Positions 23,974 to 48,406 of a stretch of 49,844 nt of DNA are shown here, in pieces. The stretch lies in contig JAHKKZ010000003.1 in assembly GCA_029856685.1 (NCBI GenBank), positions 1 to 49,844 on the forward strand, read 5' to 3'. Under the pieces are notes generated by a model. That model did no database searches and was not told the origin of the DNA. It saw only the letters and a list, made by a program, of their open reading frames with translations. Source of the DNA: Candidatus Njordarchaeota archaeon. Lineage in GTDB: Archaea > Asgardarchaeota > Njordarchaeia > Njordarchaeales > Panguiarchaeaceae. Within the stretch, counting starts at the first letter, position 1. Every line of letters begins with the position of its first letter. A program made the translations under genes and the position numbers.

Positions 23974-24038
23974 GAAATCAGTGTAACTATGATTCTTCAT
24001 CGCATTTTCGCTCTGGCTTGCCGGGTTCTCATCACCTG
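23974..24038 (-). ncRNA. Box C/D sRNA guiding 23S rRNA H69/H71 region
   Basis: GTGATGA-gaacccggcaagc-CAGA...ATGAAGA-atcatagttaca-CTGA; guides complementary (10 bp each) to conserved CUUGCCGGGU and GUAACUAUGA. Confidence 0.88.
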
Positions 24039-24139
24039 AAGGATTATATTAGTCGTTACAAATATTTTTTAACACATTTTAACACAAATTAATTTATATG
24101 TTTTTAGGATTTGTTGAACTGTTGAGGGTCTTGATAAGA

Positions 24140-24628
24140 ATGTCGGACGATGAGCTAAAGGAGCTTACTCCCGAGGAAATAGAAGCTCTAAGAGCCATGT
24201 TTTTTAAGGAAATCTCTGCGGGTCCTGCTGAGGAGCTTAGATTGATAGTTCATCCAGAACTCGAACAGCTACTATACAATAATGTGGATATTATGGCTGC
24301 ACTCTTAGTAGATTCATCGGGATTTCCAATAGATTTTGTTACAAAATACGAAACGAAGCTTAAACAGGAGGACCTCCTGGTGATTGCAAGTGCAAATATT
24401 TGGGGATTATTTGCTGCATCGGAACGAGAAAGCATGGGTCTTAACTTAGGGCACGTTAAAAGAATAATTACTAGGACTAAAAATGGTTTTCTGTTCATAA
24501 CAAGATGTGGAGAAAATTTTGTCTTAGCAGCAATAATTAGGCCGCGAGCCAGATTAGGAGTAATAATGCGCGAACTCGCAGTAACTGCTAAAAAAATTGC
24601 AGAGAAAACATCAAATTATACGCTATAA
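24140..24628 (+). CDS. Roadblock/LC7 (MglB-like) protein with acidic N-terminal extension
   Basis: IMAALLVDSSGFPI...LNLGHVKRIITRTKNG...FVLAAII....LGVIM. Confidence 0.85.
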   Translation: MSDDELKELTPEEIEALRAMFFKEISAGPAEELRLIVHPELEQLLYNNVDIMAALLVDSSGFPIDFVTKYETKLKQEDLLVIASANIWGLFAASERESMGLNLGHVKRIITRTKNGFLFITRCGENFVLAAIIRPRARLGVIMRELAVTAKKIAEKTSNYTL

Positions 24629-24671
24629 TAAAATAGAATTTTGGAATTCTGCGACCCCTCGTTTTTCTTAG

Positions 24672-25673
24672 CTATATTTTCTCAGCTATAAAGCCTATGT
24701 ATCTCCCAACGCTCCGTAGAATTGGAGCTGACGAGAATTTATAATCGACACCTGCCAGAAACTTATGAAGTATTGAAAATCTCTTCGATTTAAAATCCAT
24801 TGGAAGTGTAGAGAAAATTCCCTTCAGGTATATAAGCCTTAGGCTATTTTTTCGTAACAAGTTATCTAGTTCAAAAATTGTATAAAAGTGTGTTGGTATC
24901 CTTACATAGCCCTGTCTTATAGGCACTCTAATTTTTGCAAATGGTCTATTAGCATAGCGTAGGGTCTTCACGAACAGAGAAAAACTACTAAGAACTTTGA
25001 ATATCCAATCTAGAGCAAATTTGTTAAGAACGGTACCTATGAAAATCCCGTTGGGACGCAAAACACGAGATATTTCCTTAAATGCTCTTGGAAAAATTAT
25101 AGAGTGATCAAGAGCACCAAACACTGCTAAAACAACATCAAAGATCGCATCTTTGAACGGCAAAAACTCCGCGGGGGCGCAGATAAAGTCTATGTTTCTT
25201 GCAGATAGAGCTTTAGATACTATCTTAGCTTCAAATAGGGCTTTAAGAGAGATGTCAATCCCAACGGCCCTAAATCTAATGTTTGTACTTATCCGCTGGA
25301 GGTACTCTCTTATTAGCCATAGTTCCCAACCGCTTCCACAACCTACGGACAGTATGTTAAGCTTTTTGATATTTCTGCTACCAATCAGATATCCCAGTCC
25401 ATGGATAATAAGCTCGGCTTGTTGTCGCCTTAAATGCCTAAACCAATCACTTCTTGATGCTCTCCAAGTATTTGGGGGGATCCGCCTATAAGCAGAGATT
25501 ACTTTTCTAAGATGCCTATGAAGGATTGTTGGATAGATTATTGGAACTCCGTGATATATCCTATAGATGCGATTTGAAGATTTTATGTATCCACCTAAAA
25601 TCTCGCCATCAGACTTCGCTGCATATAGCTCATCAACTCGTATGAGAAGAAAATCAAGGATCCATTCATACAT
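24672..25673 (-). CDS. Class I SAM methyltransferase with N-terminal Trm112-like segment
   Basis: LSVGCGSG, GIDIS, AEFLPFKD..FD, RVLRPNG; N-terminus ILDFL...EILGGYI.....Y.I..GVP. Confidence 0.8.
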   Translation of the reverse strand: MYEWILDFLLIRVDELYAAKSDGEILGGYIKSSNRIYRIYHGVPIIYPTILHRHLRKVISAYRRIPPNTWRASRSDWFRHLRRQQAELIIHGLGYLIGSRNIKKLNILSVGCGSGWELWLIREYLQRISTNIRFRAVGIDISLKALFEAKIVSKALSARNIDFICAPAEFLPFKDAIFDVVLAVFGALDHSIIFPRAFKEISRVLRPNGIFIGTVLNKFALDWIFKVLSSFSLFVKTLRYANRPFAKIRVPIRQGYVRIPTHFYTIFELDNLLRKNSLRLIYLKGIFSTLPMDFKSKRFSILHKFLAGVDYKFSSAPILRSVGRYIGFIAEKI

Positions 25674-25697
25674 TACAGCACCACACTTTTGCTGTTT

Positions 25698-26543
25698 TTA
25701 TTCTGACATCACAATTTCTGTTTCAAGAACATCATAAAATCTCATTATGTAGATCTCCTCATCTTTAGAATAGGCCTTAATAATTACTTCCTTATCCTTC
25801 AGCCGATCTTTGGGTGGCTCTTTAAAGTATATGGCCTGAAACACTCCCGAACTGTCAGCTAGAAGATATCGCCATATGCGTTCTGTTACTGGTTGGTCTA
25901 TTTGACCATGTTCTGGGCAATACCAAGAATCTTCGACCATCTCAACACCCTTGCCACACAGCGGACATGCGGAATATTCGCTGGTGATCTCTTCTAAAAC
26001 GATAGCTTTCACTAACCATGCGCCTCTGTGCTCCATTACAAACTTTAGTGACTCAGCCCAAGCAGGTTTGAGCTCTGTTATCGGAGGGAGCGTAGTATCG
26101 TCTAGAATCTCAATGACAGAATTCTCTGTGACTTTTATTCCAGAATACTTTTCGAGCCTCATCTTAGTATAGCCACGTATCATTATGACATTATCCTCAT
26201 TACTGCGAAGAATTTCAACGTTATGTTCTCCGAATGCCACGCCCAGAACACGCCTTCGCTCATCAACTATGCTAAAAAGAACGAATGGCGTTCTTTCTTG
26301 AGTACCCTTCGTGTATCTCACTGGACCTACTTCCACAATCCTACCTATAATAGGTGGGTAAAATAAATCGTATGACTCTACACCAAAACGCCTAGCAACA
26401 ATAATTGCTGCCGCTCTAGGGCTCAGTTTCCCTTCCGTCTTATTCATTAGATCCCTAACTAGGTTATCAAACTCTTCTCTTGATATATCCGAACGCATTT
26501 TAACAAGCTTATACACATCGTTATATTCCTCCGAGCTCACCAT
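25698..26543 (-). CDS. Replication protein A large-subunit-like (OB folds plus Zn finger)
   Basis: N-terminal helical domain (AAAIIVARRFGV), OB fold, ACPLCGK...CPEHG...LADSSG. Confidence 0.8.
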   Translation of the reverse strand: MVSSEEYNDVYKLVKMRSDISREEFDNLVRDLMNKTEGKLSPRAAAIIVARRFGVESYDLFYPPIIGRIVEVGPVRYTKGTQERTPFVLFSIVDERRRVLGVAFGEHNVEILRSNEDNVIMIRGYTKMRLEKYSGIKVTENSVIEILDDTTLPPITELKPAWAESLKFVMEHRGAWLVKAIVLEEITSEYSACPLCGKGVEMVEDSWYCPEHGQIDQPVTERIWRYLLADSSGVFQAIYFKEPPKDRLKDKEVIIKAYSKDEEIYIMRFYDVLETEIVMSE

Positions 26544-26636
26544 GAATATTACCCATATTAATCAGCGAACCACATCATCTGATAAGTCAAACTTTAAAAA
26601 GACATAAATATTAAAAGACAAACTTCGAAGAAAAAA

Positions 26637-26711
26637 GCCCCGGTGGTGTAGAAGGCCAAGCATCCCGGCCTTTCAAGCCGGGGATCGCGGGTTCAAGTCC
26701 CGCCCGGGGCA
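26637..26711 (+). tRNA. tRNA-Glu(TTC)
   Basis: GCCCCGG/CCGGGGC acceptor, CCGGC-CTTTCAA-GCCGG, T-loop TTCAAGT. Confidence 0.96.
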
Positions 26712-26807
26712 CTAACACTATATTCTTTCTGGAAGATAAATTCCTCAAACAATAAAATATCCTTGTCATTAAGGACGAATAACATCATATTGTTTCTTCA
26801 AACGTAT

Positions 26808-26843
26808 TGATATACTCTAACTCATGTATATCATTTTATAAAA
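26808..26843 (+). promoter_or_regulatory. Actin promoter: palindrome TGATATAC-N10-GTATATCA abutting TATA box TTTTATAAAA
   Basis: Perfect 8-bp inverted repeat 26808-26833 directly 5' of TATA 26834-26843. Confidence 0.55.
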
Positions 26844-26896
26844 GAGATAATGAAGTAATATTCGGTGAAATATCAATTTAATAATAATGCTAGGAG

Positions 26897-28069
26897 GTGT
26901 CAAGTTTGGCAGGAGCAGCTCCAACTCACAAAATTCCTGAACTAGAAAGACCAGCAGTAGTAGCAGACCTTGGAACAGGATTCACAAAAGCTGGATTTGC
27001 TGGAGATGATGCACCAAGAACTGTATTTCCGACAGTTGTGGGGTACCCGAAGTACTCAGTCGTAATGCCAGAAGCCGAAACACTAGAATACTATGTAGGC
27101 CGCGACGCAATACACATGAGAGGGGTACTACAACTAGTATGGCCTCTGGAGCACGCTATCGTTGCTGATTGGGATGCTTGGGAGAAACTTATGTTTCATC
27201 TATTCTATAAGGAGCTTAGGGTGAATCCACAAGATCAAGCTATTCTCATTACTGAAGCCCCCTTAAGCCCTAAAGATAATAGGATTCGTATGGCTGAGAT
27301 ACTCTTCGAGACTTTCGGTGTTCCTGGGATATACGTTGCTACGCAGGCTATTCTCTCTCTATATGCAGCGGGTAGAGTTACAGGGTTGGTAATAGATTCT
27401 GGTGATGGTGTTACCCACATAGTTCCCGTGCAAGAGTCATACTTATTAGCCCATGCTGTTAAGAGGCTTAATCTTGCTGGACGCGATGTTACGCGATATT
27501 TAGCTAAGTTGCTTACGAAGAGAGGCATCTACTTTACTTCCTCCGCCGAAATGGAGATTGCTAGAGATATCAAAGAGAAGCTATGTTATATTGCTATCGA
27601 TTATAAGGCCGAATTAGAGAAAGCCAAGAAGATTCCTAAGGCTGTTGCAGGAATGTACGAACTCCCAGATGGACGCGTGATTGAGCTTGTGGAAGAGAGA
27701 TTCATGGCCCCAGAGATCATGTATAACCCTATGCTTATAGGGCTTGAAGCTAGACCTTTGGATGAACTAGTTCTCGAGAGCATTTTCGCTACGGACTTGG
27801 ACGTCAGACCTGCGATGTATTCAAATATTGTGATTTCTGGTGGTAACACTATGCTACCTAACTTCGCTGAGAGGTTAGAAAAAGAGCTCAAGGAAATCGT
27901 CCCTGAAAGAGCTAAAGATAAGATCGCTATTGATGCACCTGAAGAGCGTATATACGGTGTTTTCATTGGTGGATCTATACTGGCTTCATTACCTGCATTC
28001 AAGAAAATTGTTGTTACAAGAAAAGAGTGGTCTGAAGTTGGTCCAGACTCTGTTCTCAGGACTCTATAG
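26897..28069 (+). CDS. Actin (eukaryote-like, Asgard/Lokiactin type)
   Basis: DLGTGFTKAGFAGDDAPRTVFP, PLEH, LITEAPL, QAILSLY, DSGDGVTH, LAGRD, RDIKEKLCY, YELPDG, IGGSILASL. Likely start is TTG 26906 behind SD GGAGGTG. Confidence 0.97.
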   Translation: MSSLAGAAPTHKIPELERPAVVADLGTGFTKAGFAGDDAPRTVFPTVVGYPKYSVVMPEAETLEYYVGRDAIHMRGVLQLVWPLEHAIVADWDAWEKLMFHLFYKELRVNPQDQAILITEAPLSPKDNRIRMAEILFETFGVPGIYVATQAILSLYAAGRVTGLVIDSGDGVTHIVPVQESYLLAHAVKRLNLAGRDVTRYLAKLLTKRGIYFTSSAEMEIARDIKEKLCYIAIDYKAELEKAKKIPKAVAGMYELPDGRVIELVEERFMAPEIMYNPMLIGLEARPLDELVLESIFATDLDVRPAMYSNIVISGGNTMLPNFAERLEKELKEIVPERAKDKIAIDAPEERIYGVFIGGSILASLPAFKKIVVTRKEWSEVGPDSVLRTL

Positions 28070-28199
28070 TTTTTTCGTTTTTATTCCTACAAATACATAC
28101 TTAAAATTATCTTTATTTTTCAACAAATGTTGTTTTTTGATAGTAATGGCTTTAGTGGTTTTTTGTACTTTATTAGTGTACTTGTAGGGTGCGGTAGTC

Positions 28200-28823
28200 A
28201 TGGTTTTTAAAGATAAGTATGGTCACTATCGATTTAAAATTGTACTGTATGGACCCTCACTAAGTGGGAAAACAACAATGCTAAAAATACTGTACAATAA
28301 GATAAGGGGCCTCAAAAAGGGGCGGTTACGCATGGTTGCTGACCAATCTGGACGAACAATATTCTTCGACTACTTACCACTTAAAACTTCTGGCAACATA
28401 TTCTTCGATTTATATACTGTCCCAGGACAGAGAAGACATAAAACTCAGAGACGCCTAATACTTAAGGGTGCTGATTCTGTAGTATTTGTTGCGGATTCCG
28501 ATCCAGAAGCTCTCGAAGAGAATATTTATAGCATTCAAGAGCTTAGAACTTTTCTGGGCAACGAATGGGGAGAGATACCAATAGTTGTCGCTCTAAATAA
28601 ACGTGACCTGCCTGATGCACTCCCAGAAGTCATGATGTTACGTGTTATGCGTCTCGATGGTCCATATCCCGTATTTAAAACTGTAGCCATAGAAGGGTTA
28701 GGTGTAAAACGTGTATTCCAGGAAGCTTGTCGTCTAGCAGTTTTGGCCAGAATATTCCCTGAAGCTTTTAGAAGAGAGATCAAAATCTTGGCTAGAGAAA
28801 CCCGACGAAAACTTGGTCTCTGA
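28200..28823 (+). CDS. mglA: MglA-type small GTPase
   Basis: KIVLYGPSLSGKTT, RTIFFD, YTVPGQ, GADSVVFVADS, NKRDL. Confidence 0.9.
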   Translation: MVFKDKYGHYRFKIVLYGPSLSGKTTMLKILYNKIRGLKKGRLRMVADQSGRTIFFDYLPLKTSGNIFFDLYTVPGQRRHKTQRRLILKGADSVVFVADSDPEALEENIYSIQELRTFLGNEWGEIPIVVALNKRDLPDALPEVMMLRVMRLDGPYPVFKTVAIEGLGVKRVFQEACRLAVLARIFPEAFRREIKILARETRRKLGL

Positions 28824-28844
28824 CACTTCTATTTTAACTTATTC

Positions 28845-30563
28845 CTATTCGATAGCAGATCTAAGTTCTTTGGCTATATCTCTTGTGTAAGTAAGGATAA
28901 TAACATTTTTTCCTAATCTTCTAATCCTAACAAGCTCATTCGAGAAAGACATGTTTGTTGATGCTTTTTTATCGAGTAGTTTGTTAATAATTTCTGGGTT
29001 AACGTTATAGCTTAATAGCAAACTCCGCACCTTTGAGCAATCTCCTAGAGCCTCAAGATTGAACATGACACGAAAATCATCAAGTAGCTTATACGCTCTC
29101 TCTTCGAGATCCTGAACAATATAGCGAGGAACCCTCTTTAGTTTCTCTATAAACGCATTTATCTTATCAAGAGTAAGATTCACGTTGCTCTCTATTTCCT
29201 CCAGCTCATGTTTTAGTATCTCTCTTATCCTCTCAATCTTATCTAATACCTTCCTCTCGACATACCTATATAGCTCTGCTACTACTAGGTCGCCTCTCCC
29301 CAACTCGCCATGAGCCAATCTTTCTAGTTCCTTCAAGTAGCTTGGAGTATCATTTTTTCCATAAATTCCTATAGCGATCCTTTCTAATTCCTTCGGACCA
29401 ACACCAAGAATTATAGATGCTAATGCCAGAGCTTTAAGCCAAACACCCGGCGTATCAAAAGACCCTATTTTCGTTTCCTTAAGCCACTTAACAAATTTTT
29501 TAAAAAACTCCCAAGGATTATGATATCGGCTTTTCACTAATGGTTTTAGCTCAGTTCTATGTGCAAAAACATATGGTATCGCCCAGAGAAGGTCTTCTAT
29601 ATCAACTGCTTTTCTCCCCCTCAGCCATGCCCTTGCTCGAGCATAAGCAAAAAGCGCTATTGAAGCTCTCTCGTCAGGAGGTTCTTGAATCTTACTGCAA
29701 GGCTCATTAGCATATTCACATTCCGTACATGGAAGCCTCATATATCCTGGCATAAGGTCTAATCTACCAAACTTACATATACGGAGGGATGAAAGTATCA
29801 TTATCCCCAAGAGTTTTATATGTTCGGGTATAGCTATAGACATTACATCATTCCATACACATTCCAGTTCTTCGAAAGACATAATTTTGGGCATGGTTTC
29901 GACAATAGCAAGTTTACCAGATGTTTCTTTCTCACTTTCTAAGAGTCTATCAATTATATTCTTCGATTCCTCTAAGCCTGGAAGTCCTATATAGCAAGAC
30001 CCCCAGAACCTAGATTTTAAGGCCCGATCGATTTCTCCTCGGAATGGATTCATGTCAGCGAAGCATATGTAATCGGGAGTCTCAAAACGCATACCCCCAT
30101 ATTCAATATATCCTTCCTCCAACAGACTTAGAAGAGCATCTTGAACACTCTTAGAAAAGCGATTTATCTCATTGATAAACTTTACTCTTGCTTTTACTAT
30201 GGGACGTACTATGATTTCCTCCTTACCAGTAGTCAGCAATTTAACAAGATTCGTACTAACCAAAACTTTTTGGAGAGTCTTCTCAGGAGCCCCTATCACA
30301 ATTCCTAAAATGTCCTTCTGCCCCATTGAAAGCGCTCGGCTTATGAGTCTTACAAGAGTTGACTTTCCCGCCCCCGGATATCCAACTAATAGGACTTTGT
30401 TATTACGTATTAAGAGAGACGCGATAATAAATTCTTTGAGTGAACGATCCTGCGTAAACCATCTCTCGAAGAGTTCCTTATACAAAATTGCTATTTTGTC
30501 ACGATATTTCTCAATCTCCTCAGAATTTTCCTCCAATGCTACTCCCCAAGGGCATCCATGCAT
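28845..30563 (-). CDS. MoxR-like AAA+ ATPase
   Basis: GYPGAGKS, FINEINR, QDALLSLLEEG, MNP, DRALKSRF, AHR. Confidence 0.88.
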   Translation of the reverse strand: MHGCPWGVALEENSEEIEKYRDKIAILYKELFERWFTQDRSLKEFIIASLLIRNNKVLLVGYPGAGKSTLVRLISRALSMGQKDILGIVIGAPEKTLQKVLVSTNLVKLLTTGKEEIIVRPIVKARVKFINEINRFSKSVQDALLSLLEEGYIEYGGMRFETPDYICFADMNPFRGEIDRALKSRFWGSCYIGLPGLEESKNIIDRLLESEKETSGKLAIVETMPKIMSFEELECVWNDVMSIAIPEHIKLLGIMILSSLRICKFGRLDLMPGYMRLPCTECEYANEPCSKIQEPPDERASIALFAYARARAWLRGRKAVDIEDLLWAIPYVFAHRTELKPLVKSRYHNPWEFFKKFVKWLKETKIGSFDTPGVWLKALALASIILGVGPKELERIAIGIYGKNDTPSYLKELERLAHGELGRGDLVVAELYRYVERKVLDKIERIREILKHELEEIESNVNLTLDKINAFIEKLKRVPRYIVQDLEERAYKLLDDFRVMFNLEALGDCSKVRSLLLSYNVNPEIINKLLDKKASTNMSFSNELVRIRRLGKNVIILTYTRDIAKELRSAIE

Positions 30564-32167: not shown

Positions 32168-32188
32168 GGCTTCAAAGCCTATTATTAC

Positions 32189-36114: not shown

Positions 36115-37329
36115 GTGATTCTAATGGTGGAATACCTAGACGAAACAACAAAATTTGATGGAATTTATCTTAGAAGAATAAGAGAGGGGGGAACACTTTA
36201 CTGGATACCAGATCCACAACACTATGCAAAACCAGGTTACTATCTCCCATTTGAGCTACCATTATTTTATAATCCCATGATGGAGATCAATAGGGATCTA
36301 TCAATAATAGCTCTCGCAACATTCCTAAGAGTGTCTGATAAGGAGCCAGAAGAAATTACATATATAGAACTGCTTGCTGGGACAGGGATACGAGGTTTCA
36401 GAGCGCTAAATGAAGTTGGATTGCTTAATGTTATTATGAACGACATCAACTCCAAGTGCGTGAAATTTATGCATTTCAATGCAAAATGTTTTTCCCCAGA
36501 GATACAAAGCCATGCGACGATACTAAACTATGAGGCTAATCACCTACTCAGCTCAATTAGGCTCTGGAAAAAACCAATAGACGCCATAGACATAGATCCC
36601 TTCGGGACACCCACACCATTCATAGACTCCGCGGTAAGAATACTTAGGAGAAAAACAGGCCTATTACTAATAACAGCAACAGATACCTCGGCTCTCATAG
36701 GAAAATTCCCTCAGTCAGCCCGTAGGAAATACGGAGTCTACACAAAAATCACACCTTTTGGCGGAGAAATAGCCATCCGTACATTGATCCATTATGCTCT
36801 TAATACAGCCACAAAATACGGAATAGCACTCAAACCGCTATTTGGATTCTTCTTAACGCACTTCATAAAAATCGCACTTATCACAATTCCAGGAAGAAGA
36901 GTCGCAGATAAGTTTCTTTGGGATAGATCAGGCTGGATTGCCATCGAAGATGACAAAATACACATACTCAGAAAACCAAAAAACACACCCAAAGGTGACC
37001 TCATAGGCCCAATATGGCTAGGACCCATATACGATGAAGAATTCGTAAATGAGGCCCTAAACATAACAAACAAGCTACCCATAAATAAAAAATCGAAAAC
37101 AAAAATTGAGACATGGCTCAAAGCAGAACTTAAAACAGCTCTTATCCCCTTCTACTACAATATAGAACTAATAGCATCAAAACTCCGAAGAACAACACCA
37201 CGAATCAAAGACGTCATAAACGAACTACAGAAACAGGGCTACATAGCAGAAAGAACACACTTCCATCCAAAAGCTATAAAAACAAATGCCCCTCTCGAAA
37301 TCATACAGAAAATTATTAAAAAACTCTAA
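36115..37329 (+). CDS. trm1: tRNA (guanine-26-N2)-dimethyltransferase
   Basis: FYNP.M..NRD, AGTGIRG.R, DIDPFGTP, TATD, GPIWLG, RTHF....IKTNAP. Confidence 0.93.
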   Translation: MILMVEYLDETTKFDGIYLRRIREGGTLYWIPDPQHYAKPGYYLPFELPLFYNPMMEINRDLSIIALATFLRVSDKEPEEITYIELLAGTGIRGFRALNEVGLLNVIMNDINSKCVKFMHFNAKCFSPEIQSHATILNYEANHLLSSIRLWKKPIDAIDIDPFGTPTPFIDSAVRILRRKTGLLLITATDTSALIGKFPQSARRKYGVYTKITPFGGEIAIRTLIHYALNTATKYGIALKPLFGFFLTHFIKIALITIPGRRVADKFLWDRSGWIAIEDDKIHILRKPKNTPKGDLIGPIWLGPIYDEEFVNEALNITNKLPINKKSKTKIETWLKAELKTALIPFYYNIELIASKLRRTTPRIKDVINELQKQGYIAERTHFHPKAIKTNAPLEIIQKIIKKL

Positions 37330-37336
37330 CAGAAAA

Positions 37337-37393
37337 GCTCAGCTTGCCCATCGGCGCTCATGATTTTTCGCACAAGGCTGAATTCATCATCGC
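37337..37393 (-). ncRNA. Box C/D sRNA guiding 16S rRNA h27
   Basis: ATGATGA-attcagccttgt-GCGA...ATGAGCG-ccgatgggcaag-CTGA; D' guide pairs with conserved GCAAGGCUGAA. Confidence 0.78.
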
Positions 37394-37402
37394 GTATAAC
37401 TA

Positions 37403-37636
37403 CTAGTCAAAAACCTGGATCATCAGAATGGTTGACCCACGCAGAAGAACTGTTCCCCATTTACGTACAATTTCTCCTTTTTCATTAACTTCTTTCGTAT
37501 CCACAAGCATTATGTTCATTACCTCATCCGTCGACATTACTACGCCATCCAGTATCGTACCATCTTTAAGCCACACTTTTATGCGTTTGTTTACTGAACG
37601 CCTAAGAGTCGCTAGGGGTAAATTCGAGGATGACAT
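37403..37636 (-). CDS. Sm-like protein (SmAP/Lsm)
   Basis: V.LKDG....G.....D..MNI.L (Sm1), G.VLLRG..I (Sm2). Confidence 0.93.
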   Translation of the reverse strand: MSSSNLPLATLRRSVNKRIKVWLKDGTILDGVVMSTDEVMNIMLVDTKEVNEKGEIVRKWGTVLLRGSTILMIQVFD

Positions 37637-37661
37637 TGAGAAGCCCCCCAAGGAGTAGTAT

Positions 37662-38000
37662 TTAGCCGAATAATGCTGCCAAGCCTGCTAGCGCTTCCTC
37701 TTCCTTCTTTTCCTTCTTCTTTTCTTCCTTCTTCTCTTCTTTCTTCTCTTCTTCAGCAGGTGGCGCTGCTGTTGTGGCGGGTGCCGGAGCTGCAGCCACT
37801 ACTGGTGCTCGTTTTGCTTGCTCTATTATCTCATTGAGATTCACTTTACTTACAGCGCTCACAATTGCTTTTATGTATCCCTCTTCATAATCTGTTATGC
37901 CTGCCGCCTGAAGGATATTCTTGATATTCTCCTCATTTATCTCTTTTCCCGCGTAGTGTAGTAGCATGACGGCATGCAGATATACCATCCCAGATGTCAT
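37662..38000 (-). CDS. rpl12: Ribosomal stalk protein aP1 (L12)
   Basis: Y.HA..LLH..GKEINEE, Ala/Pro hinge, [13 protein letters not shown]. Confidence 0.95.
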
Positions 38001-38268
38001 GTCGATCCCCATTACTAATGTTAATCTCAGTTAAATTCAGCAACAATTATATGTTTATTTGACTTTATAAAAATACCACAATACTAAACTTAGGAAAGAA
38101 GAAAATTCCTTCTAAATCTTACATTAACAAGCGGTGGTATTTTCTTTGAAAATTCCCGCCTCTGGCTCCTAGTATTTCCACATCAAATCTATGAGGATAT
38201 TACCCTTATAATATCAGGTGTTAATTATTTCTTTGGGCTTCCCATTTCACGCTGAAATGGAGAGAATT

Positions 38269-40160: not shown

Positions 40161-40172
40161 AAATAGATCTGT

Positions 40173-40715: not shown

Positions 40716-40769
40716 GAATGCTTCAACGAATTTCTTCTCTATTGTAACCCCCTATTTACTGGCTATCTC

Positions 40770-41573
40770 TCATGTTATACCAAATTCCTCTGTTTCTGGC
40801 TCAAAACGTTCTTCTTTTCTTTGCCTCATTTCTTCTCGAGCTCTCATCTCCATGAGACGAGAAACCTCAAGTTGAATCCTCGTATCGAAGGGAGACAAAT
40901 CTAAACCAAAATCGAATGTTTTTGCTATCCTCTTTGCTAGTTTCAATGATGCTAGACTATCAACATATCCTGCTTGGGCATACGTAGGAGCTAATAAGCT
41001 CACTGCAGGAACCCCCTTCAGTTCGGCAAACATCAGGAAAATAGCTATGCCTCCAGACACAACAACACCAGGTGGAGATTTCTCTATATCCCATTTAAAT
41101 GCACCGGAATTCAGCATGGTTTTAAATACCGAGTTACTGGTATAAACTATATCCGCGTTTTCACGCTTAATGGAAGGAAAAACCTTTATGTCTATTCCTC
41201 CTGCAAGTATCAGTATTATTTCGTATTTCTTCGCAAGATCTGTTATTTTATCTGCAATGCTCACATGAAGACCGCTGGGAACTTGGTATCTGAAGAGAAG
41301 AACACTTGCTCTATCGCTTATCTGACAGAGCTCCACAGGATAATTAAATGTCCCATTATTATTTACTTCGACGATTGGTGGAAGGCTTGCTGACCACACG
41401 AGGCCTATTCGACGTAGGCAGCCGAGTTCCTCCGCCACTTCACAAAGATATCTGGAGGTTAAATATCCACATAAGCCAAGGCCGTAGAAACCAGTTACCA
41501 TATACTTTATCTTTTGTAGAGCTTCATAGTTTTCTACTATTAGTTTGATTTCGCTAGTATTCCCTAGCTCCAA
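40770..41573 (-). CDS. PAC2 family proteasome assembly chaperone
   Basis: TGFYGLGLCGYL, ILAGG, VSGG....L, D..AS..L. Confidence 0.82.
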   Translation of the reverse strand: MELGNTSEIKLIVENYEALQKIKYMVTGFYGLGLCGYLTSRYLCEVAEELGCLRRIGLVWSASLPPIVEVNNNGTFNYPVELCQISDRASVLLFRYQVPSGLHVSIADKITDLAKKYEIILILAGGIDIKVFPSIKRENADIVYTSNSVFKTMLNSGAFKWDIEKSPPGVVVSGGIAIFLMFAELKGVPAVSLLAPTYAQAGYVDSLASLKLAKRIAKTFDFGLDLSPFDTRIQLEVSRLMEMRAREEMRQRKEERFEPETEEFGIT

Positions 41574-41588
41574 TAAGCAAACACCTAT

Positions 41589-42227
41589 TTATGCGAACTC
41601 TAACTCGGAGAGAGCCTTTAATATGTCCTTCTCTTTTTTCTTAAGCTCCTTAGGGGATACAGGTTTTCCCTCTTCTGTGTCTGGAGACACCTCAGGTATT
41701 GCTATTTCCTCAGCAGACGGGACCTCGGGCACTTCTAATTTTTCTAATCCTTCCAATTGTTCTAATCGCTCCAGATATTTTTCTAAGTCGAATTCCTCCT
41801 CAACTTTTCCTTTCTCAGTAGAAACACTAACTTCTTTTCGTTCCTCGGTGATACTTGGTACCGGAGGAACAGGCAAACTTTCTGCTTTTTCTTGGGCTTC
41901 GGCGCCTTCGATTTTAGCTTCAGTTCTAGGGGCTTCCAATTCCTCGATTGACGGGACTTCGGGTAGCACCATGTCAAGCTCTGTTCCGATCGCTTCTTCT
42001 GGGGCACTGGGTGTAGGAGGTATAGCGGGCATAGCACGCCGTTCAATTCTTGATAATTTAGCTTTTATTGTGTCTACCTCAGCTTTCAAAGTTTCTACAT
42101 TTTTCTCTAATCTCTCAAGATGCTCTTTTTGTCCCTTCAATTCCTGCACTATTATTTTTAGGTACTTCTTAACTCTCTCAATGAATTCTTCAAGCGTAAC
42201 CCTTTTTGTTTCGAATTTTTTGGGCAT
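41589..42227 (-). CDS. Coiled-coil protein with Pro/Glu-rich linker and repeated PEVPS motifs
   Basis: Heptad N-terminus (~65 aa), disordered acidic region, two amphipathic helices. Confidence 0.75.
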   Translation of the reverse strand: MPKKFETKRVTLEEFIERVKKYLKIIVQELKGQKEHLERLEKNVETLKAEVDTIKAKLSRIERRAMPAIPPTPSAPEEAIGTELDMVLPEVPSIEELEAPRTEAKIEGAEAQEKAESLPVPPVPSITEERKEVSVSTEKGKVEEEFDLEKYLERLEQLEGLEKLEVPEVPSAEEIAIPEVSPDTEEGKPVSPKELKKKEKDILKALSELEFA

Positions 42228-42363
42228 TATTTATAACCTCCTAAATAGAACAGTAATGCTATTTAACACAAGAATAATGCAATAACATCACTTAAAAAAG
42301 AATGCAATTTATGAATTATGAACAGTATACAAATCAGCTTTTTCTCCCAATAAGATTGAAAAA

Positions 42364-42660
42364 CTAATCTATTTCATCGATTACTTCGAGAATACCCAAA
42401 ACAAATTCTATCGCCGCAAGAAAATCATCAATTGTCCTCAAAATACTGCGTATCCTATCATCAGGTCTTTTCTCTACCCGTACGTCTAGCGTAATTATAT
42501 CTCCACTAAGAACTTGTTTTATTTCTATATCTTCGAACTTTATTAAGCTCTCTGGTAGAACTGCTAGATTTATTAGCTTTGTGCATCTACCTTTTGTTTT
42601 TATTTTTGCTGTAGCTTTGATTTCTTGGATAATATACGCATTGCTATATTTGCTATTCAT
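42364..42660 (-). CDS. pcc1: KEOPS subunit Pcc1-like
   Basis: AVLPES...IRSILRTIDDFL; follows RecJ as in the conserved S15-RecJ-Pcc1 operon. Confidence 0.65.
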   Translation of the reverse strand: MNSKYSNAYIIQEIKATAKIKTKGRCTKLINLAVLPESLIKFEDIEIKQVLSGDIITLDVRVEKRPDDRIRSILRTIDDFLAAIEFVLGILEVIDEID

Positions 42661-44198
42661 GATAAGATCTCCTTGCTTAGAATACTTAAGAATAGGTCAA
42701 GACTTTCCTCTGGTATATATGCTCCTGCTGCTGATTCATGACCACCCCCAATAATGTTTGGCATTTTCTCTGAGATTTTCTTAAGTATGTCTGTTAGGCT
42801 TTTTTCGAGAAGGTTCGTCTTTCTTAAGGAGATCTTTAGAATACCTTCAATGCTTCTAGCGATTGCAATTACGACCTTAACTCTATCTTTTAGTGAGGAT
42901 GCTAAGATGCTCGATATCGTGCTTGTTAGCTCCTCATGAATCTCATCCCTACCATCATAGATAGCCACCTCTCCCATCAAGTCGATTTTAGTGTCCAGAT
43001 TCGAGAATACTGACGACAGGATTGCTCGGTATCTCTCATATAACTGGAATATTCGCTGAACCGCAGATTGGTCTGAGGGATTAAGCAGACCTTTTATCGC
43101 TATTTCTGGAGCCCTCATCTTACCACAAGCATTAAGAAGTATTGACATATCCCTAGCATATCGGCAGAAGAACTCCTTATCAGCTAGAAATTCATATACA
43201 TAGCCCCGCAATATGTTGTTTAGCTCCTCTATGGAGTATTTCCCAGAGTATTTCAATACTAATGCTTCAAGAAGCTTTCTTCGTAAGACATCTTTCTGCT
43301 CTGGAGTAAGTTTCTCCCAAAATATCTTTTCGGGATCATCATCGTGACTCATTATTCCGATTCTGATAAGGAAGTCTATTGCTCCGTCATAGCTTCCAGA
43401 TACTCCAGGAATTTCAAAAATAAACATTTCAGCGAGAAGTCTATATAGAGGTTTAAAGCCCCTTCCGATTAGGATGTAGTCCTCATAACTACATAATATG
43501 CCATGTCTCTTGCCATACTCGACAATTGACCGATTTAGCCCCAGTAAGGATCTCTTCGCACCGATATCTTGTGCGTCACCCAGAGCTCCAACCACCGCGC
43601 AGAAGAGAGAAATTGGATTGTTTGCGAAGAAATTGCTAATGGTATTTGCTAACAGAAAAGTCATCCCTGCTGAACTTATTTCAACTCCTCCGTCGAGCCC
43701 CCAGAATCTTGGGTTAATGACTAATGACTTCGAATAGCTATTGCGAATGCTAAATACATGATGATCTATAACTATTCCCAGAGATACACCAGGAGTATTC
43801 TCAATATATTCTAGTGGGGCATCCGTACCTAGATCCAAAAATATGGCATAGCGAGGTTCAACTTCTTGCCAGAACTCCCTAAAGCTTTCTACAGATATCT
43901 GCGGAAAGAAGTTTAACACAAAAGGCTTATTCATTTCGATAAGAAGCTCTATGATTATTGCTGCGGAGCAAATGCCATCTGCGTCTATATGGGAGAATAT
44001 GAATATGGGGTCATCTCTCCCCATATGTATCAGGACTTTTGCTATCCGTGCCATATCACTTATTATTCCTGAAAGTCTACATGTTCTAACTGTGCTTATT
44101 GAGACTCCCCCTATCCCCCCAGACAAATTACATCCCAACAAACACAAAAATTTATTTTTACTATTTTTTGACAGAATTGCAACAAGATATATTAACAA
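42657..44198 (-). CDS. DHH family RecJ/Cdc45-like protein
   Basis: SHIDADG, DLG, IDHH, GALGDAQD, NACG, GGGHESAAG; long helical insertion; true start probably downstream (~44052). Confidence 0.88.
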   Translation of the reverse strand: MLIYLVAILSKNSKNKFLCLLGCNLSGGIGGVSISTVRTCRLSGIISDMARIAKVLIHMGRDDPIFIFSHIDADGICSAAIIIELLIEMNKPFVLNFFPQISVESFREFWQEVEPRYAIFLDLGTDAPLEYIENTPGVSLGIVIDHHVFSIRNSYSKSLVINPRFWGLDGGVEISSAGMTFLLANTISNFFANNPISLFCAVVGALGDAQDIGAKRSLLGLNRSIVEYGKRHGILCSYEDYILIGRGFKPLYRLLAEMFIFEIPGVSGSYDGAIDFLIRIGIMSHDDDPEKIFWEKLTPEQKDVLRRKLLEALVLKYSGKYSIEELNNILRGYVYEFLADKEFFCRYARDMSILLNACGKMRAPEIAIKGLLNPSDQSAVQRIFQLYERYRAILSSVFSNLDTKIDLMGEVAIYDGRDEIHEELTSTISSILASSLKDRVKVVIAIARSIEGILKISLRKTNLLEKSLTDILKKISEKMPNIIGGGHESAAGAYIPEESLDLFLSILSKEILS

Positions 44199-44221
44199 TC
44201 GACATTAATGAGGTGATGATT

Positions 44222-44566
44222 TTGGGAAAGAAAAAGGCTAAAGCTGAAGAAAAATTCGTAACTTTGCAGGAGGGAGATTTAGTAGGACTTCTCTTGCGCA
44301 TGTTGGGTGGTGACTGGATTGAGGTTTATTGTAGTGATGGACTAATACGCAAGGTTAGAATCCCTAGATCAAAGAGATCCATCCGTGTACGTCCTAATGA
44401 TATAATCATTATTAGGCCTTGGTACGGCATAGATGAGACACGTGCCGATATGGTAAACAAGCTGACTTCTCGTGATATTAAACATCTGCTTAAAACAGAA
44501 CATGCAGACAAAATAAAGAAAGTATTAACTGAAGAACTCAAAGAATTGTATGGAATAGAGGAATGA
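44222..44566 (+). CDS. eif1a: Translation initiation factor aIF-1A
   Basis: G....MLGG....V.CSDG..R..RIP...D.I...PW; TTG start behind SD GAGGTGA. Confidence 0.88.
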   Translation: MGKKKAKAEEKFVTLQEGDLVGLLLRMLGGDWIEVYCSDGLIRKVRIPRSKRSIRVRPNDIIIIRPWYGIDETRADMVNKLTSRDIKHLLKTEHADKIKKVLTEELKELYGIEE

Positions 44567-44579
44567 TTTTTGTGCGCTG

Positions 44580-45788
44580 ATGTTTATGGGGAAAATTATT
44601 GTAGCACCAGAAACATTAGATCACTCATTCATTCCAGAGAAATTACCGACACGAGAGAATATCCGATCTGAGCTTTTTTTAAAGATTCGACAGTTTTTTT
44701 CTCAGTCCTCTGGGAAGGGATTTAAGGGCATCCATATCTCTGGAAGTGTTGGCTCTGGAAAAACAGTCTTATCACGTAGGGTTGCTGCTGATTTAAAGAC
44801 AGTGTTTAGGGAGAATCTCATCATATGCTATGTTAATTGCAGGTTTTCTAAGAGAGTCTATCGCGTACTCGCACAAATAGCGTCGCAAATATCATCTTCC
44901 CTCCCCCAGCGTGGTCTGTCTAAGGATGAGTTTTTAGAGCTAATATTTCTTGCAACAAAAGAAAGAGCGCAGAGACTCCTCATAATATTAGATGAAATCG
45001 ACTCTCTATTTTGGGGAAATGAAGGTGAAAAAGCTACGGATATGCTTTATTCTCTATCGCGGTATCTTGAAAAAACAACATTCAGCAACTTTTTTGTCGC
45101 AACTATAAGTATCAGCAGAACCGAAGAATTCATATTTAGCTGGCTTGATCCAGCAACTAGGGCCTCGTTTATCCACGAGAAAAAACATCTTGAGGCATAC
45201 GGTCCAGGGGAACTTGTTGAGATACTAAGATATCGAGCCAAGTTGGCCTTCAGAAATGGAACTATTAGCGAAGAGAGTCTGTCATATTTAGCTAACTTTG
45301 TTGCTAATCAAGCATGGGGCAATGCAAGAACGGCAATAGACCTTTTGCGACTTGCTGGTGAGATAGCAGAGCATAAGAATGAGGATGTTGTTAGACCAGA
45401 ACACATCAGATTGGCCATAAAGGAGTATGCATTAATACCTGCACTCGACATGGAAAAGCTTATTGGGCTAGGACGACATAAACTTATTCTGCTCCTAGCA
45501 ACAATATTGGCGCTAAAAAACAGTAATAGGAGCTATGTCACAAGAACTATGGTTCAGGAATACTATCGAGAACTCTGTGCCGAATATGGCGAAGAACCAA
45601 GAAAGACAACACAGATATGGCGCTACCTGAGAGAGATTGAATACGAACTTAGTGGTATTGTTGAAGTTACAGTAAGTGGAAAAAATCAGCGAGGACGTTC
45701 AACCAGGATATCAATAAACGTGCCTCTGGATACCCTCGAAAAAAATATTGTTAAAATTCTAAAGAAAATCCCTTCAGGGTTGGGGTAA
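44580..45788 (+). CDS. cdc6: Orc1/Cdc6 replication initiator
   Basis: FIPEKLPTRE, GSVGSGKT, YVNC, ILDEID, GNARTAIDLL, C-terminal wHTH with RGRST. Confidence 0.93.
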   Translation: MFMGKIIVAPETLDHSFIPEKLPTRENIRSELFLKIRQFFSQSSGKGFKGIHISGSVGSGKTVLSRRVAADLKTVFRENLIICYVNCRFSKRVYRVLAQIASQISSSLPQRGLSKDEFLELIFLATKERAQRLLIILDEIDSLFWGNEGEKATDMLYSLSRYLEKTTFSNFFVATISISRTEEFIFSWLDPATRASFIHEKKHLEAYGPGELVEILRYRAKLAFRNGTISEESLSYLANFVANQAWGNARTAIDLLRLAGEIAEHKNEDVVRPEHIRLAIKEYALIPALDMEKLIGLGRHKLILLLATILALKNSNRSYVTRTMVQEYYRELCAEYGEEPRKTTQIWRYLREIEYELSGIVEVTVSGKNQRGRSTRISINVPLDTLEKNIVKILKKIPSGLG

Positions 45789-45795
45789 TTTCGTT

Positions 45796-46170
45796 CTATT
45801 TTGTCCCCTTGAACTGCTCCCTTATTTGCTCTATGGTTACTCCCTGTATTCTCTTGAGCAATTCATTGAGTTCCTCCAACTGAAGAAACTTTGGTTCCCC
45901 TATATCTGGTAAAAATAGGAAAGCTGGGATGTATCGCCCATCTTCTCTTAGTTTCTCACGAATAGGCTTTGTTATATCAATGAATTTTTCTGGCATGAGT
46001 ATTATCGCGTATTCGGTTTGTTTTGCCTCGAGAATTTCTCTTAATACGGCTAGAAGCTCCGCATCATCCTCCATTATTTTTGCTTCCACACCAACAATTG
46101 CGAAGATTTTTCCTAGGTCTTCATAGTCCTTGGTAGCGGCAAACAGAATTTTGTATGCCTCCGCACTCAA
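45796..46170 (-). CDS. A/V-type ATPase subunit F-like
   Basis: F.IVGV...EYAIILM....I...IPAFLFLPD...L.ELLKRIQGV. Confidence 0.65.
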   Translation of the reverse strand: MSAEAYKILFAATKDYEDLGKIFAIVGVEAKIMEDDAELLAVLREILEAKQTEYAIILMPEKFIDITKPIREKLREDGRYIPAFLFLPDIGEPKFLQLEELNELLKRIQGVTIEQIREQFKGTK

Positions 46171-46172
46171 GT

Positions 46173-47543
46173 TTATCCTCTCAGATAATTCTCTATAAAT
46201 TCATCCACAACATTTTCTAGTGTATATCCAGAAACTTCAACAATATCATACTTGACCTGCACAATAGGCTTATTCACATTTAAGCCATATACTTCAAAAA
46301 TCCTACTGAGCGTCACCGGTGTTCCCGAGACAATCACATCTGCCTTCACATGATTTATTACATCAAGAAGCACTTTGACCTGCTTCTTATTGTAGCCTAT
46401 TGTAGGTAGAATCTTACCTAGGTGGGGGTATTTTCCGTAAATCTCTTCCAAAACAGAATCTTTAGGTACATAGGGACGAGGATCAACTACTTCTTTCGCA
46501 CCAAACATTCGCGCTGCAAGTAGGCCTGCTGCTAGATCGGCTTCTCCATGGGTTACTGTTGGTCCATCCTCTATTACTAAGACCCTCTTATTGCGTATCA
46601 TTGATGGGTCCTCAACATGTATCTGTGATTCTGCAAGTATTATTCTAGCTTTTGGATTCACTCTTTGAACATTCCTGATTATCGCTTTCCAATTGTCGAA
46701 CGGCGCCGGCCCAATCTTATTTATTAGTACAACATCACACATCCTTATGTTTACACTACCTGGAAAATATGTTAACTCGTGGCCTGGTCGAAGAGCATCG
46801 GCAACAGTTATCATCAAATCTGGCTTTATGAATGGAAAATCGTTATTGCCTCCATCCCAAAGAATCACATCGGCATTTTTCTCAGCCTCTCTGAGGATTT
46901 TCTCATAGTCTATCCCAGACCACACTTCGAAACCATTCTGCAAGTAATGCTCAAACTCCTCTAACTCTTCTATAGAAAGATCTCCTGTTGCCAATTTTTT
47001 GTATGCATCATCCATTGTCTTGAAGCATTCCACTACCTTCTTACTTAGATCCTTCGCATATGGCATGGGATGTCTTATAGCTGCGATCTTTATTCCCTTC
47101 TTACGGAATATCTTAGCAAGCTTCCTTGAGACTGAAGATTTACCTGCTCCTGTCCTAACAGCTGTAACTGCTATGACAGGTTTCTCACTTTCTAGCATAG
47201 TATCCTTTGGGCCTAGCAACATAAAAGACGCTCCATTCGCTAGTGCTATCGATGCGCGCTCCATCAAATACTCAAAGCTTATATCTGAGTATGAGAATAC
47301 TACTAGGTCCGCTCCTTTCTCTCTAATAATTTTGGGAAGGTCCTTTTCAGGAATTAAAGGTATTCCTTGAGGATACAGTTTTCCTGCTAGTTCTGGGGGG
47401 TATATCCTATCCGAAATCTCTGGGATTTGAGTCTGTGTGAAAGCAACGACTTCAAAATCTGGGTTATCTCTAAAGAAGACATTGAAGTTATGGAAATCCC
47501 TACCTGCAGCGCCCATAATCACTACCTTACGTCGCTTAGCCAT
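46173..47543 (-). CDS. P-loop protein, COG2403 / cyclic 2,3-diphosphoglycerate synthetase-like
   Basis: MGAAGRDFHNFN, RTGAGKS, RHPMPY, WDGGNND, EDGPTVTHG. Confidence 0.87.
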   Translation of the reverse strand: MAKRRKVVIMGAAGRDFHNFNVFFRDNPDFEVVAFTQTQIPEISDRIYPPELAGKLYPQGIPLIPEKDLPKIIREKGADLVVFSYSDISFEYLMERASIALANGASFMLLGPKDTMLESEKPVIAVTAVRTGAGKSSVSRKLAKIFRKKGIKIAAIRHPMPYAKDLSKKVVECFKTMDDAYKKLATGDLSIEELEEFEHYLQNGFEVWSGIDYEKILREAEKNADVILWDGGNNDFPFIKPDLMITVADALRPGHELTYFPGSVNIRMCDVVLINKIGPAPFDNWKAIIRNVQRVNPKARIILAESQIHVEDPSMIRNKRVLVIEDGPTVTHGEADLAAGLLAARMFGAKEVVDPRPYVPKDSVLEEIYGKYPHLGKILPTIGYNKKQVKVLLDVINHVKADVIVSGTPVTLSRIFEVYGLNVNKPIVQVKYDIVEVSGYTLENVVDEFIENYLRG

Positions 47544-47634
47544 GCTGAGACACCTCTAAAAGAAATTAATATCATTGAGAATGCATTGTTGATTAACAGG
47601 ATTAAAGATAAGTGAAAATATTCTGGAAAGAGTA

Positions 47635-48285
47635 ATGAGGGATAAGAATATGTTCTACCCCCTAGCAATATATCTTTCCCCTGAGAAAAAATTTATCTTG
47701 GAATTCAAAGAAGCCATCATATTCCTCGACCCACGCAACCTAGAAAATATAGCTGAATTTACGGATAAGGTACATAAACCTGTAAATATAATGCTGAGCG
47801 GAAAGGAATCGGATCTAAGCATATCTGACCTTAGTGAGATGTATAGGGTCATAGCGCCGCCCATACAGAGCTTCTATCACCCTCTAGTATCAATATACAG
47901 GGAAGAAGAAACAGTCTTCCTAACAAAAAATTTACTTGGATATTTTCTTAACCCACCTACCATAGATAGGGAAAACAATACTATAAGCTACTTCATCTTC
48001 CTAACGACTACACAGTTGGAAGTATTATATGTGCCGAGAATAACATTTGTCGCAAATCCACCAAACGTTGATATAATATTGACCTATAAGCATGTATTGG
48101 ACCAAGCAAAAAAGTTTTCAGAAAAACCCAATAACATTCCAAAATATCTCGGAGGAACCCCTCAATGGTGTATAGTATTAAGCAAGAAAGACAGCGTCGA
48201 ACCGCCCATCATATACATAAATAGGAAGAAGTATGGGGTGTATAGACACCTCCTAGAGGTTCGTATAAGGGAGATTAGAAGCTAA
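47635..48285 (+). CDS. Hypothetical protein
   Basis: 216-aa ORF; vaguely MBL-fold-like N-terminus (IIFLDP) but no His motif. Confidence 0.55.
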   Translation: MRDKNMFYPLAIYLSPEKKFILEFKEAIIFLDPRNLENIAEFTDKVHKPVNIMLSGKESDLSISDLSEMYRVIAPPIQSFYHPLVSIYREEETVFLTKNLLGYFLNPPTIDRENNTISYFIFLTTTQLEVLYVPRITFVANPPNVDIILTYKHVLDQAKKFSEKPNNIPKYLGGTPQWCIVLSKKDSVEPPIIYINRKKYGVYRHLLEVRIREIRS

Positions 48286-48350
48286 TGCATATTAGAAACA
48301 TCCTAAAATCCCTTAGAATAACCAAAGATTACCACTAAAAAATAAGCAAT

Positions 48351-48406
48351 AGGTCAGAGTGGTGCACGTTCATCACTAATCAGAGCAGGTCAGACATCAT
48401 CATCAG
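48351..48406 (-). ncRNA. Box C/D sRNA guiding both strands of 16S rRNA h34
   Basis: Perfect boxes: ATGATGA-tgtctgacctgct-CTGA-tta-GTGATGA-acgtgcaccact-CTGA; guides pair with (G/A)GCAGGUCAG and GUGGUGCAUG. Confidence 0.92.

Follow-up and report, generated by a model that had tools for sequence, protein, structure and literature searches.

In archaeal box C/D small RNAs (sRNAs), the C/D and C'/D' motifs form a kink-turn and a kink-loop that are bound by L7Ae, Nop5 and fibrillarin, and fibrillarin 2'-O-methylates the ribosomal RNA (rRNA) nucleotide opposite the fifth position of the guide. The eukaryotic small nucleolar RNAs (snoRNAs) are often intronic. Here we describe three box C/D sRNA genes, designated sRNA1, sRNA2 and sRNA3, in a stretch of 49,844 nucleotides (the window) that comprises positions 1 to 49,844 of contig JAHKKZ010000003.1 in the Candidatus Njordarchaeota archaeon assembly GCA_029856685.1. 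The initial annotation of this DNA had noted that five guides fall on sites methylated in yeast, and had viewed them as a snoRNA-like modification map descended from the ancestors of eukaryotic snoRNAs. We favour, with a probability of about 0.8, a plainer reading, in which these are ordinary and independently placed archaeal genes and the overlap with yeast reflects old or recurrent selection on shared core positions, not an Asgard-specific snoRNA-like map. Archaeal methylation sites are described in the literature as mostly lineage-specific, with approximately 17% common to more than one species, and reviews place archaeal hotspots in 23S helices H68-71 and in 16S helices h3, h18 and h27. 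No C/D sRNA map of an Asgard archaeon was found in a literature search.

The closest described counterpart of sRNA1 is sR91 of Dennis et al. (2015; PMC4644070, Additional file 1), a double guide for A2179 and G2211, which is the sRNA1 pair in apparently the same D/D' order. That supplement deals with seven archaea, and its species list has no Asgard member; sR91 is compared here by table entry, not by sequence, and is placed in Ignicoccus hospitalis from the label I91, as the species of sR25, sR30, sR32 and sR54 are likewise deduced from the one-letter labels that accompany the alignment. A Desulfurococcales metagenome-assembled genome (MAG) also carries a double-guide sRNA like sRNA1, for E. 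coli-equivalent (Ec) positions A1913 and G1945 of 23S rRNA. In the two RNAs the guide for H69 follows the respective host (ATAGTTAC in sRNA1 versus AGAGTTAC in the MAG), and neither the D' and C' boxes nor the linker are the same. Among eukaryotes, SNORD46/U46 and yeast snR63 (human Am3739, yeast Am2256) address the same H69 loop adenosine as the D guide of sRNA1, but they are longer, mostly single-guide RNAs with no likeness to sRNA1 outside the guide.

For sRNA2 the nearest relatives in size and box layout are Pyrococcus sR60, sR44 and sR19 (RF01309, RF01129, RF01142). The D' guide of sR60 has TTCAGCC in common with sRNA2, in the same register, but the two RNAs have different bases next to the D' box and unrelated second guides, and sRNA2 scores 27.6 bits in the sR60 family against a gathering threshold of 50. 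For sRNA3, yeast snR40, human U32 and plant snoR21/Z221 (Gm1271, Gm1328 and Gm1272) share the register of the D guide, which selects the G that immediately precedes UGCA in helix 34 of 16S rRNA, at 8.5-10 bits against gathering thresholds of 44-50. A separate yeast snoRNA, snR56, serves the partner site Gm1428, whereas sRNA3 combines both guides. Sulfolobus acidocaldarius (Sac) sR6 and related Thermoprotei guides address the same helix 34 strand with the core ATGCACCTC; according to the 2015 supplement, Sac sR6 is one nucleotide off in register, at G1026 (Ec 1050) as against G1027 (Ec 1051) for sRNA3, and the second guide of Sac sR6 is assigned to G1100 and not to the 1197-equivalent.

Anatomy and detection of the three loci

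All three loci were read directly from the sequence and lie on the minus strand, between open reading frames (ORFs). The double-guide sRNA1 (23976..24037) has a C box GTGATGA at 24035-24029, a D' box CAGA at 24015-24012, a C' box ATGAAGA at 24000-23994 and a D box CTGA at 23981-23978, with a D' guide of 13 nucleotides (nt) at 24028-24016 and a D guide of 12 nt at 23993-23982. In sRNA2 (37337..37394), the C box ATGATGA occupies 37390-37384, the D' box GCGA 37371-37368 and the D box CTGA 37342-37339; a 12-nt D' guide is found at 37383-37372 and a D guide at 37354-37343, separated by a C' box at about 37364-37355 that is degenerate and weak, the D' box of this RNA being degenerate as well. The double-guide sRNA3 (48352..48407) bears the C box ATGATGA at 48403-48397, the D' box CTGA at 48383-48380, the C' box GTGATGA at 48376-48370 and the D box CTGA at 48357-48354, and its D' guide (48396-48384) and D guide (48369-48358) measure 13 and 12 nt.

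The terminal C (RUGAUGA) and D (CUGA) boxes of an archaeal box C/D sRNA are thus present at 3/3 loci, and internal D'/C' boxes, guides of 12-13 nt and a length of about 56-62 nt agree with the internal boxes, guides of about 12 nt and 50-70 nt length expected of the class. Each locus also has an A/T-rich, TATA-like stretch some 8-20 nt 5' of its C box and a T-rich stretch past its D box. A relaxed scan of the window scored the three at 19.5, 17.0 and 14.0, while reversed-sequence controls peaked at 13.0. The boxes, guides and scan scores together confirm the three unannotated intergenic C/D RNAs proposed in the initial annotation, and we regard them as genuine archaeal box C/D sRNA genes on the minus strand, presumably expressed. 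A fourth candidate at 4148-4199 on the plus strand, with a score of 14.0, was taken as a false positive because it lies within ORF 3751-5097.

At the gathering threshold, Rfam reported only tRNAs over the window, and no sRNA locus reached the gathering score of any C/D family. The best match of sRNA1 was GlsR7 (17.2 bits, cut-off 75), and its best archaeal family was sR18 (16.7 bits, cut-off 45). Besides sR60, sRNA2 had a sub-gathering match to sR44 (23.4 bits), and sRNA3 matched sR1 (27.9 bits, cut-off 45) and, also below gathering, snoPyro_CD (26.9 bits).

Predicted rRNA targets

The genome to which the window belongs (1.93 Mb in 252 contigs, 79% complete) was searched for 16S and 23S rRNA and yielded neither, and for this reason targets were assigned on the 16S and 23S rRNA of G001, a genome of the same genus, with numbering by way of E. 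coli K-12. Pairing was counted over guide positions 2-11, the core, and significance was judged from shuffled guides. The D guide of sRNA1 is predicted to target A2040 of the G001 23S rRNA (Ec A1913) in the H69 loop, and its D' guide G2072 (Ec G1945) in H71; both pair at 10/10 core positions, which was equalled by 1 of 300 shuffles for one of the two guides and by 0 for the other. For the D' guide of sRNA2 the predicted target is 16S G861 (Ec G902) in helix 27, and for the D guide of sRNA3 it is 16S G1004 (Ec 1051) on one strand of helix 34, each with 10/10 core pairs and each equalled by 1/300 shuffles. These four guides all form a Watson-Crick pair at the target position. The register of the sRNA2 D' guide is read as G902 and not A901 since the D' boxes of the orthologues, GTGA in four of the same genus and GCGA in the same-order genome G013 as in the window, each follow the identical 12-nt guide.

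The D' guide of sRNA3 probably targets 16S G1160 (Ec 1197), on the other strand of helix 34. It forms nine contiguous pairs there, a number reached by 55/500 shuffles. A competing site at Ec 1246 offers 10 Watson-Crick pairs with one internal mismatch adjoining the target. The core GACCTGCT beside the D' box is unchanged in each of the four genus orthologues examined, in which the bases required for Ec 1246 vary, and orthologues of sRNA3 in f17, of the same phylum, would form 10 contiguous pairs at the 1197-equivalent in the same register, as measured against the common 16S sequence of the phylum. The conserved core, the f17 pairing and the position of the partner guide on the opposite strand of the same helix are the reasons for preferring Ec 1197.

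The D guide of sRNA2 is an orphan, with no convincing target in the G001 rRNA, 47 tRNAs or the whole genome; the best tRNA match has 9 Watson-Crick pairs and one G-U of 12. A wobble-rich site at 23S Ec ~2102, in the L1-stalk region, pairs tentatively with 8 Watson-Crick and 3 G-U pairs. Among the orthologues (L058-L062), the core CGATGGGCA of this guide is retained by most genus members, G002 having GGGCA, and also in family f3, and the bases that do vary would still pair, as A-U or G-U, with the same site, which may be a lineage-specific target. By the usual measure of guide-rRNA complementarity, about 10 base pairs including Watson-Crick pairing at position five, four guides thus pair at 10/10, one has 9 and one is an orphan. 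All five targets named in the initial annotation were reproduced on the G001 rRNA, Ec 1197 being the weaker one.

The same sites in other archaea

When the alignment numbering of the 2015 set is matched to E. coli (A2179 = 1913, G2211 = 1945, G884 = 902, G1027 = 1051, G1184 = 1197), the supplement lists A2179 once (sR91), G2211 three times (sR30, sR54, sR91), 16S G884 three times (including Mka sR32) and 16S G1184 once (sR32). There 16S G1027, the equivalent of Ec 1051, has no listed guide, while its neighbour G1026 (Ec 1050) is listed four times, including Sac sR6, whose register was confirmed from its printed sequence. Equally frequent methylation of these sites in non-Asgard thermophiles was what the initial annotation itself had named as an argument against its proposal, and this argument applies to four of the five sites, with sR91 matching the A1913 and G1945 pair; G1051 is the exception.

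Genomes of the window's phylum and of Thermoprotei, in samples that do not overlap, were scanned with patterns made of a box, a guide core and a box, the control being the pattern read backwards. The A1913 register was found in 12/101 genomes of the phylum (4 control hits), among them 5/5 of the genus, 2/3 of f15 and 0/7 of f3, and in 14/101 Thermoprotei (0 control hits), which have the same TGAAGA variant of the C' box. With slightly different patterns, the G1197 register occurred in 4/101 genomes of the phylum and 3/101 Thermoprotei, one of the latter guides sitting within a helix 34 double guide; the f17 sRNAs also bear a G1197 guide that the strict pattern missed. The G902 register, scanned in the window's phylum only, is present in 5/5 genus genomes and 1/7 of f3, which is also the distribution of sRNA2 orthologues, and in 0/49 other relatives. 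A search for the A1913 and G1945 double guide across 185,579 species, one genome each, returned 8 loci: three of the same genus, the one in the Desulfurococcales MAG, and four bacterial matches without boxes.

Guides for the 5' strand of helix 34, at either G1050 or G1051, were found in 21/201 genomes of the window's phylum (6 control hits) and 25/101 Thermoprotei (5 control hits). The G1051 register is present in 4/5 genus genomes and at least 5/7 of f3, and among the 201 genomes of the phylum it occurs only in the window's order. The G1050 register is that of 4/4 f17 genomes, of f4 and of a second f3 sRNA, and the matches in the 25 Thermoprotei genomes are nearly all G1050, with at most one doubtful G1051. 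In the sister family f3, genomes G008 and G010 each have two separate guides for the adjacent positions Ec 1050 and 1051 (L039/L053 and L040/L054), and G009 has the G1050-type guide only (L041). A Thermoprotei locus, G286:C50:438-486, is a helix 34 double guide for Ec 1050 and 1197, that is, the architecture of sRNA3 with a register shift of one nucleotide.

Orthologues of the three genes were followed through the relatives. In the four other genus genomes the boxes and most guides are conserved, the flanks and linkers have diverged and the spacing of the loci is unchanged. For sRNA1, the boxes and D guide are kept in all four, and the D' guide is unchanged in three of them, with two base differences in G003; sRNA3 has orthologues in the genus, in f3 and in f17, where the D guide is shifted by one position. 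A compensatory change in the rRNA was considered as the explanation of the D' guide variants in f3 and rejected, as the sole f3 16S fragment has the helix 34 sequence of the genus. Within the phylum the guides are confined to the genus, the order or scattered families. Neither continuity along the line toward eukaryotes nor rarity outside that line was observed: the distribution in the phylum is patchy, and four of the five sites recur in Thermoprotei and in the 2015 set.

Correspondence with eukaryotic methylation sites

All five yeast sites that had been named as equivalents, together with their snoRNAs, are present in a published table of yeast sites, and a published table gives four of them as common to plants, human and yeast, with no equivalent in Pyrococcus abyssi; an alga shares three of these four. 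The assignments differ in strength. The published tables equate U46 with yeast snR63 (Am2256), equate snoR21 and U32 with snR40 (Gm1271; plant Gm1272), and give yeast Psi2258 and Psi2260 as E. coli 1915 and 1917, from which it follows that Am2256 is Ec 1913. The D guide and D box of sRNA1 match the SNORD46 consensus of Rfam at every position of a 15-nt stretch, and the D guide of sRNA3 is in register with the Rfam snR40 and plant Z221/R21b consensus. Am2256 thus corresponds to the predicted target of the sRNA1 D guide and Gm1271 to that of the sRNA3 D guide. Gm2288 is probably Ec 1945, given the same constant offset of 343 as for Am2256, under which each of the yeast-modified C2278, A2280, A2281, G2288 and C2337 coincides with the same base in the archaeal 23S rRNA. 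Gm1126 is tentatively placed at Ec 902 and Gm1428 at Ec 1197. Interpolation from a published table of plant, Pyrococcus and E. coli positions agrees with the placement of these two only within a few nucleotides. E. coli equivalents of human and yeast sites were found neither in the main text of PMC5062969 nor in the searchable supplements of PMC5027482.

The likeness to snoRNA families is confined to the guide and its box, at 14.8 bits against a gathering threshold of 40 for SNORD46 and at 8.5 against 50 for the helix 34 guide, and does not extend beyond the guide. When the sRNAs were searched in halves against Rfam, no eukaryotic family was returned for the G1945, G902 or G1197 guides.

The genome-wide complement

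A simple scan of the genome at a score of at least 8 gave 45 candidates, as against 2 in the reversed-genome control, and these resolve to 42 non-overlapping loci; sRNA2 falls just below the threshold of this scanner. A strong rRNA match was found for 26/84 guides of the 42 loci compared with 5/84 shuffled guides, and addition of the D' guides of sRNA2 and sRNA3 brings the assigned guides to 28. Under a provisional mapping, about 6/28 of these confident guides lie on yeast 2'-O-methylation sites, namely Ec 1913, 1945, 1994, 902, 1051 and 1197; Ec 1994 corresponds to Cm2337 by the offset of 343, and there is a weaker additional guide at U2552 (= Um2921). The remaining positions include 13, 53, 456, 465, 679, 713, 783, 1195, 1233, 1532 and 1533 in 16S rRNA and 547, 1215, 1774, 1917, 1920, 1956, 2022, 2068, 2501 and 2593 in 23S rRNA. 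Because most assigned guides fall off the yeast sites, the map of the organism as a whole is, provisionally, not snoRNA-like, and the window happens to contain the conserved guides.

The genome encodes the proteins of the guide complex, with fibrillarin, Nop5 and L7Ae genes above the cut-offs of PF01269, PF01798 and PF01248. Two sRNA candidates of genome G000, C45:3571-3619 and C113:1031-1079, have identical boxes and guides (23S Ec 2612 and 2068) and represent a duplication or an assembly duplicate. Two different sRNA candidates, at C1:10711-10759 and C4:3567-3616 of G000, have guides that pair perfectly at the very 3' end of 16S rRNA (Ec 1532 and 1533), in the anti-Shine-Dalgarno region.

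Ordinary archaeal guides or remnants of a snoRNA ancestry

The interpretation of the three genes as ordinary archaeal sRNAs has to accommodate several observations that weigh against it. None of the three loci is at a Rfam gathering score; the families concerned are narrow, built from single genera or lineages, and sub-gathering scores bear on those families, not on membership in the box C/D class. The target calls rest on the rRNA of a same-genus genome (G001), the organism's own rRNA being missing from the assembly. The occurrence of five out of five yeast sites in a single window exceeds the genome-wide rate of about 6/28, a rate that itself depends on the provisional yeast mapping. Finally, the G1051 register is eukaryote-like, absent from the 2015 set and found in at most 1/101 Thermoprotei, and at this position the notion of a site shared with TACK archaea fails. 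For the other positions the comparison favours the plainer interpretation: a match to a yeast site alone carries little phylogenetic signal, because distant thermophilic archaea also target these core positions.

The principal alternative is vertical inheritance, in which at least sRNA3, and perhaps sRNA1, would share ancestors with snR40/U32, snR56/U25, snR63/U46 and snR75/U15, and double guides would later have split into single-guide snoRNAs. Its attraction lies in the 15-nt identity with SNORD46, in the sRNA3 D guide being in register with snR40 and plant R21b, in the published equivalences of U46 with snR63 and of snoR21 and U32 with snR40, in the G1051 register that most genomes of the genus and of f3 have and that occurs in at most one of the Thermoprotei, which use G1050, in the conservation of four of the five sites among plants, human and yeast without a P. 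abyssi equivalent, and in a host with a eukaryote-like actin. Against this, the likeness to snoRNAs is limited to guide sequences that are dictated by the conserved rRNA target, and the other three guides match no eukaryotic family. The distribution in the phylum is as patchy as described above, with A1913 in 0/7 of f3, G902 in the genus and 1/7 of f3 and 1051 in the window's order alone; f17, though of the same phylum, uses G1050 rather than G1051; and Crenarchaeota, Euryarchaeota or Nanoarchaeota have guides for four of the five. Since these four are targeted in non-Asgard thermophiles, orthology to snoRNA ancestors, as initially suggested, is unsupported, and the G1051 register is the one detail that fits that suggestion. 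We consider such descent unlikely. It is similarly doubtful that the helix 34 double guide of this thermophilic order of actin-bearing archaea, on the exact pan-eukaryotic Gm1271 and Gm1428 nucleotides, and the H69/H71 double guide are a remnant of the guide set behind the oldest eukaryotic snoRNAs, reached through double-guide splitting.

The last alternative is that some guides serve chiefly as chaperones of folding or act elsewhere (the sRNA3 D' guide at Ec 1246 or at no useful site, the sRNA2 D guide on a non-rRNA or lineage-specific target), so that the map would hold fewer than five sites. It has in its favour the modest pairing at Ec 1197 beside the competing Ec 1246 site, the conserved sRNA2 D core with its wobble-rich best site, and papers in which 28% of Pyrobaculum guides are orphans and double guides are suggested to have chaperone or local-folding roles, but it is very improbable given the constancy of GACCTGCT in the genus where the Ec 1246 bases vary, the predicted f17 pairing at the 1197-equivalent and the perfect pairing of four guides.

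Host and neighbouring genes

The host was correctly described as actin-bearing: the gene at 26897..28069 on the plus strand scores 366 bits to Pfam Actin, and a phmmer search against PDB gave 'HC1 actin' as the top match (E = 9.8e-129), with eukaryotic actins at about 1e-125. We take the product to be an Asgard-type actin, from general knowledge of the family. The same-genus genome G031 has three further actin-like genes, which are more distant (40-49% identity). Three same-genus MAGs (L023, L025 and L027) have an actin 90-92% identical to that of the window and the same three sRNAs; given that actin, their public titles, 'uncultured Nitrososphaerota archaeon' or 'Crenarchaeota archaeon', look like taxonomic mislabels. 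A Pfam search of the window's genome for profilin gave no match and is uninformative, as the control likewise matched nowhere. The sequencing runs listed for this DNA comprise 22 DNA datasets, from hydrothermal-vent and sediment metagenomes, and no RNA run.

The neighbours of the sRNAs encode a thermosome subunit, a Roadblock/LC7 protein, Trm1, ribosomal protein P1 and an LSm protein. The Roadblock/LC7-domain gene (24098-24628, plus strand) adjoins sRNA1, with the thermosome subunit gene on the opposite side. The start of sRNA2 lies 9 nt past the stop codon of the LSm gene, on the same strand, and the LSm gene follows that for ribosomal protein P1 (region 37403-38012, minus strand); co-transcription of sRNA2 with the P1-LSm genes is possible from this arrangement. 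On its other side sRNA2 is 8 nt from the end of the convergent gene for the Trm1 tRNA methyltransferase (36115-37329, plus strand). Elsewhere in the window, three clustered tRNA genes at 344-435, 479-575 and 589-673 on the minus strand are 85-97 nt long, longer than standard, and probably contain introns or long variable arms.

Proposed mechanism and significance

On the interpretation as ordinary archaeal guides, each sRNA would fold so that its C/D and C'/D' motifs recruit L7Ae, Nop5 and fibrillarin, and the 12-13 nt guide 5' of the D or D' box would pair with the nascent rRNA, after which fibrillarin would methylate the nucleotide. Expression, assembly of the ribonucleoprotein and methylation at the predicted targets are what the boxes and guides lead one to expect. 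The predicted targets all lie in the universally conserved core, at the intersubunit bridge and the decoding region, where the ribose methylations of archaea and eukaryotes alike cluster. As double guides, sRNA1 (H69 and H71) and sRNA3 (both strands of h34) may in addition aid local folding.

If Asgard guide sets overlapped the pan-eukaryotic map more than those of other archaea do, they would be a rare trace, at the level of RNA, of the origins of eukaryotes. Most of the five sites show the opposite, being core positions that are common to distant thermophilic archaea. What the analysis yields is the annotation of three sRNA genes, an initial catalogue of about 42 C/D sRNA candidates from this lineage, and the detail of the G1051 versus G1050 register in helix 34; the annotation is new, and of a well-known kind.

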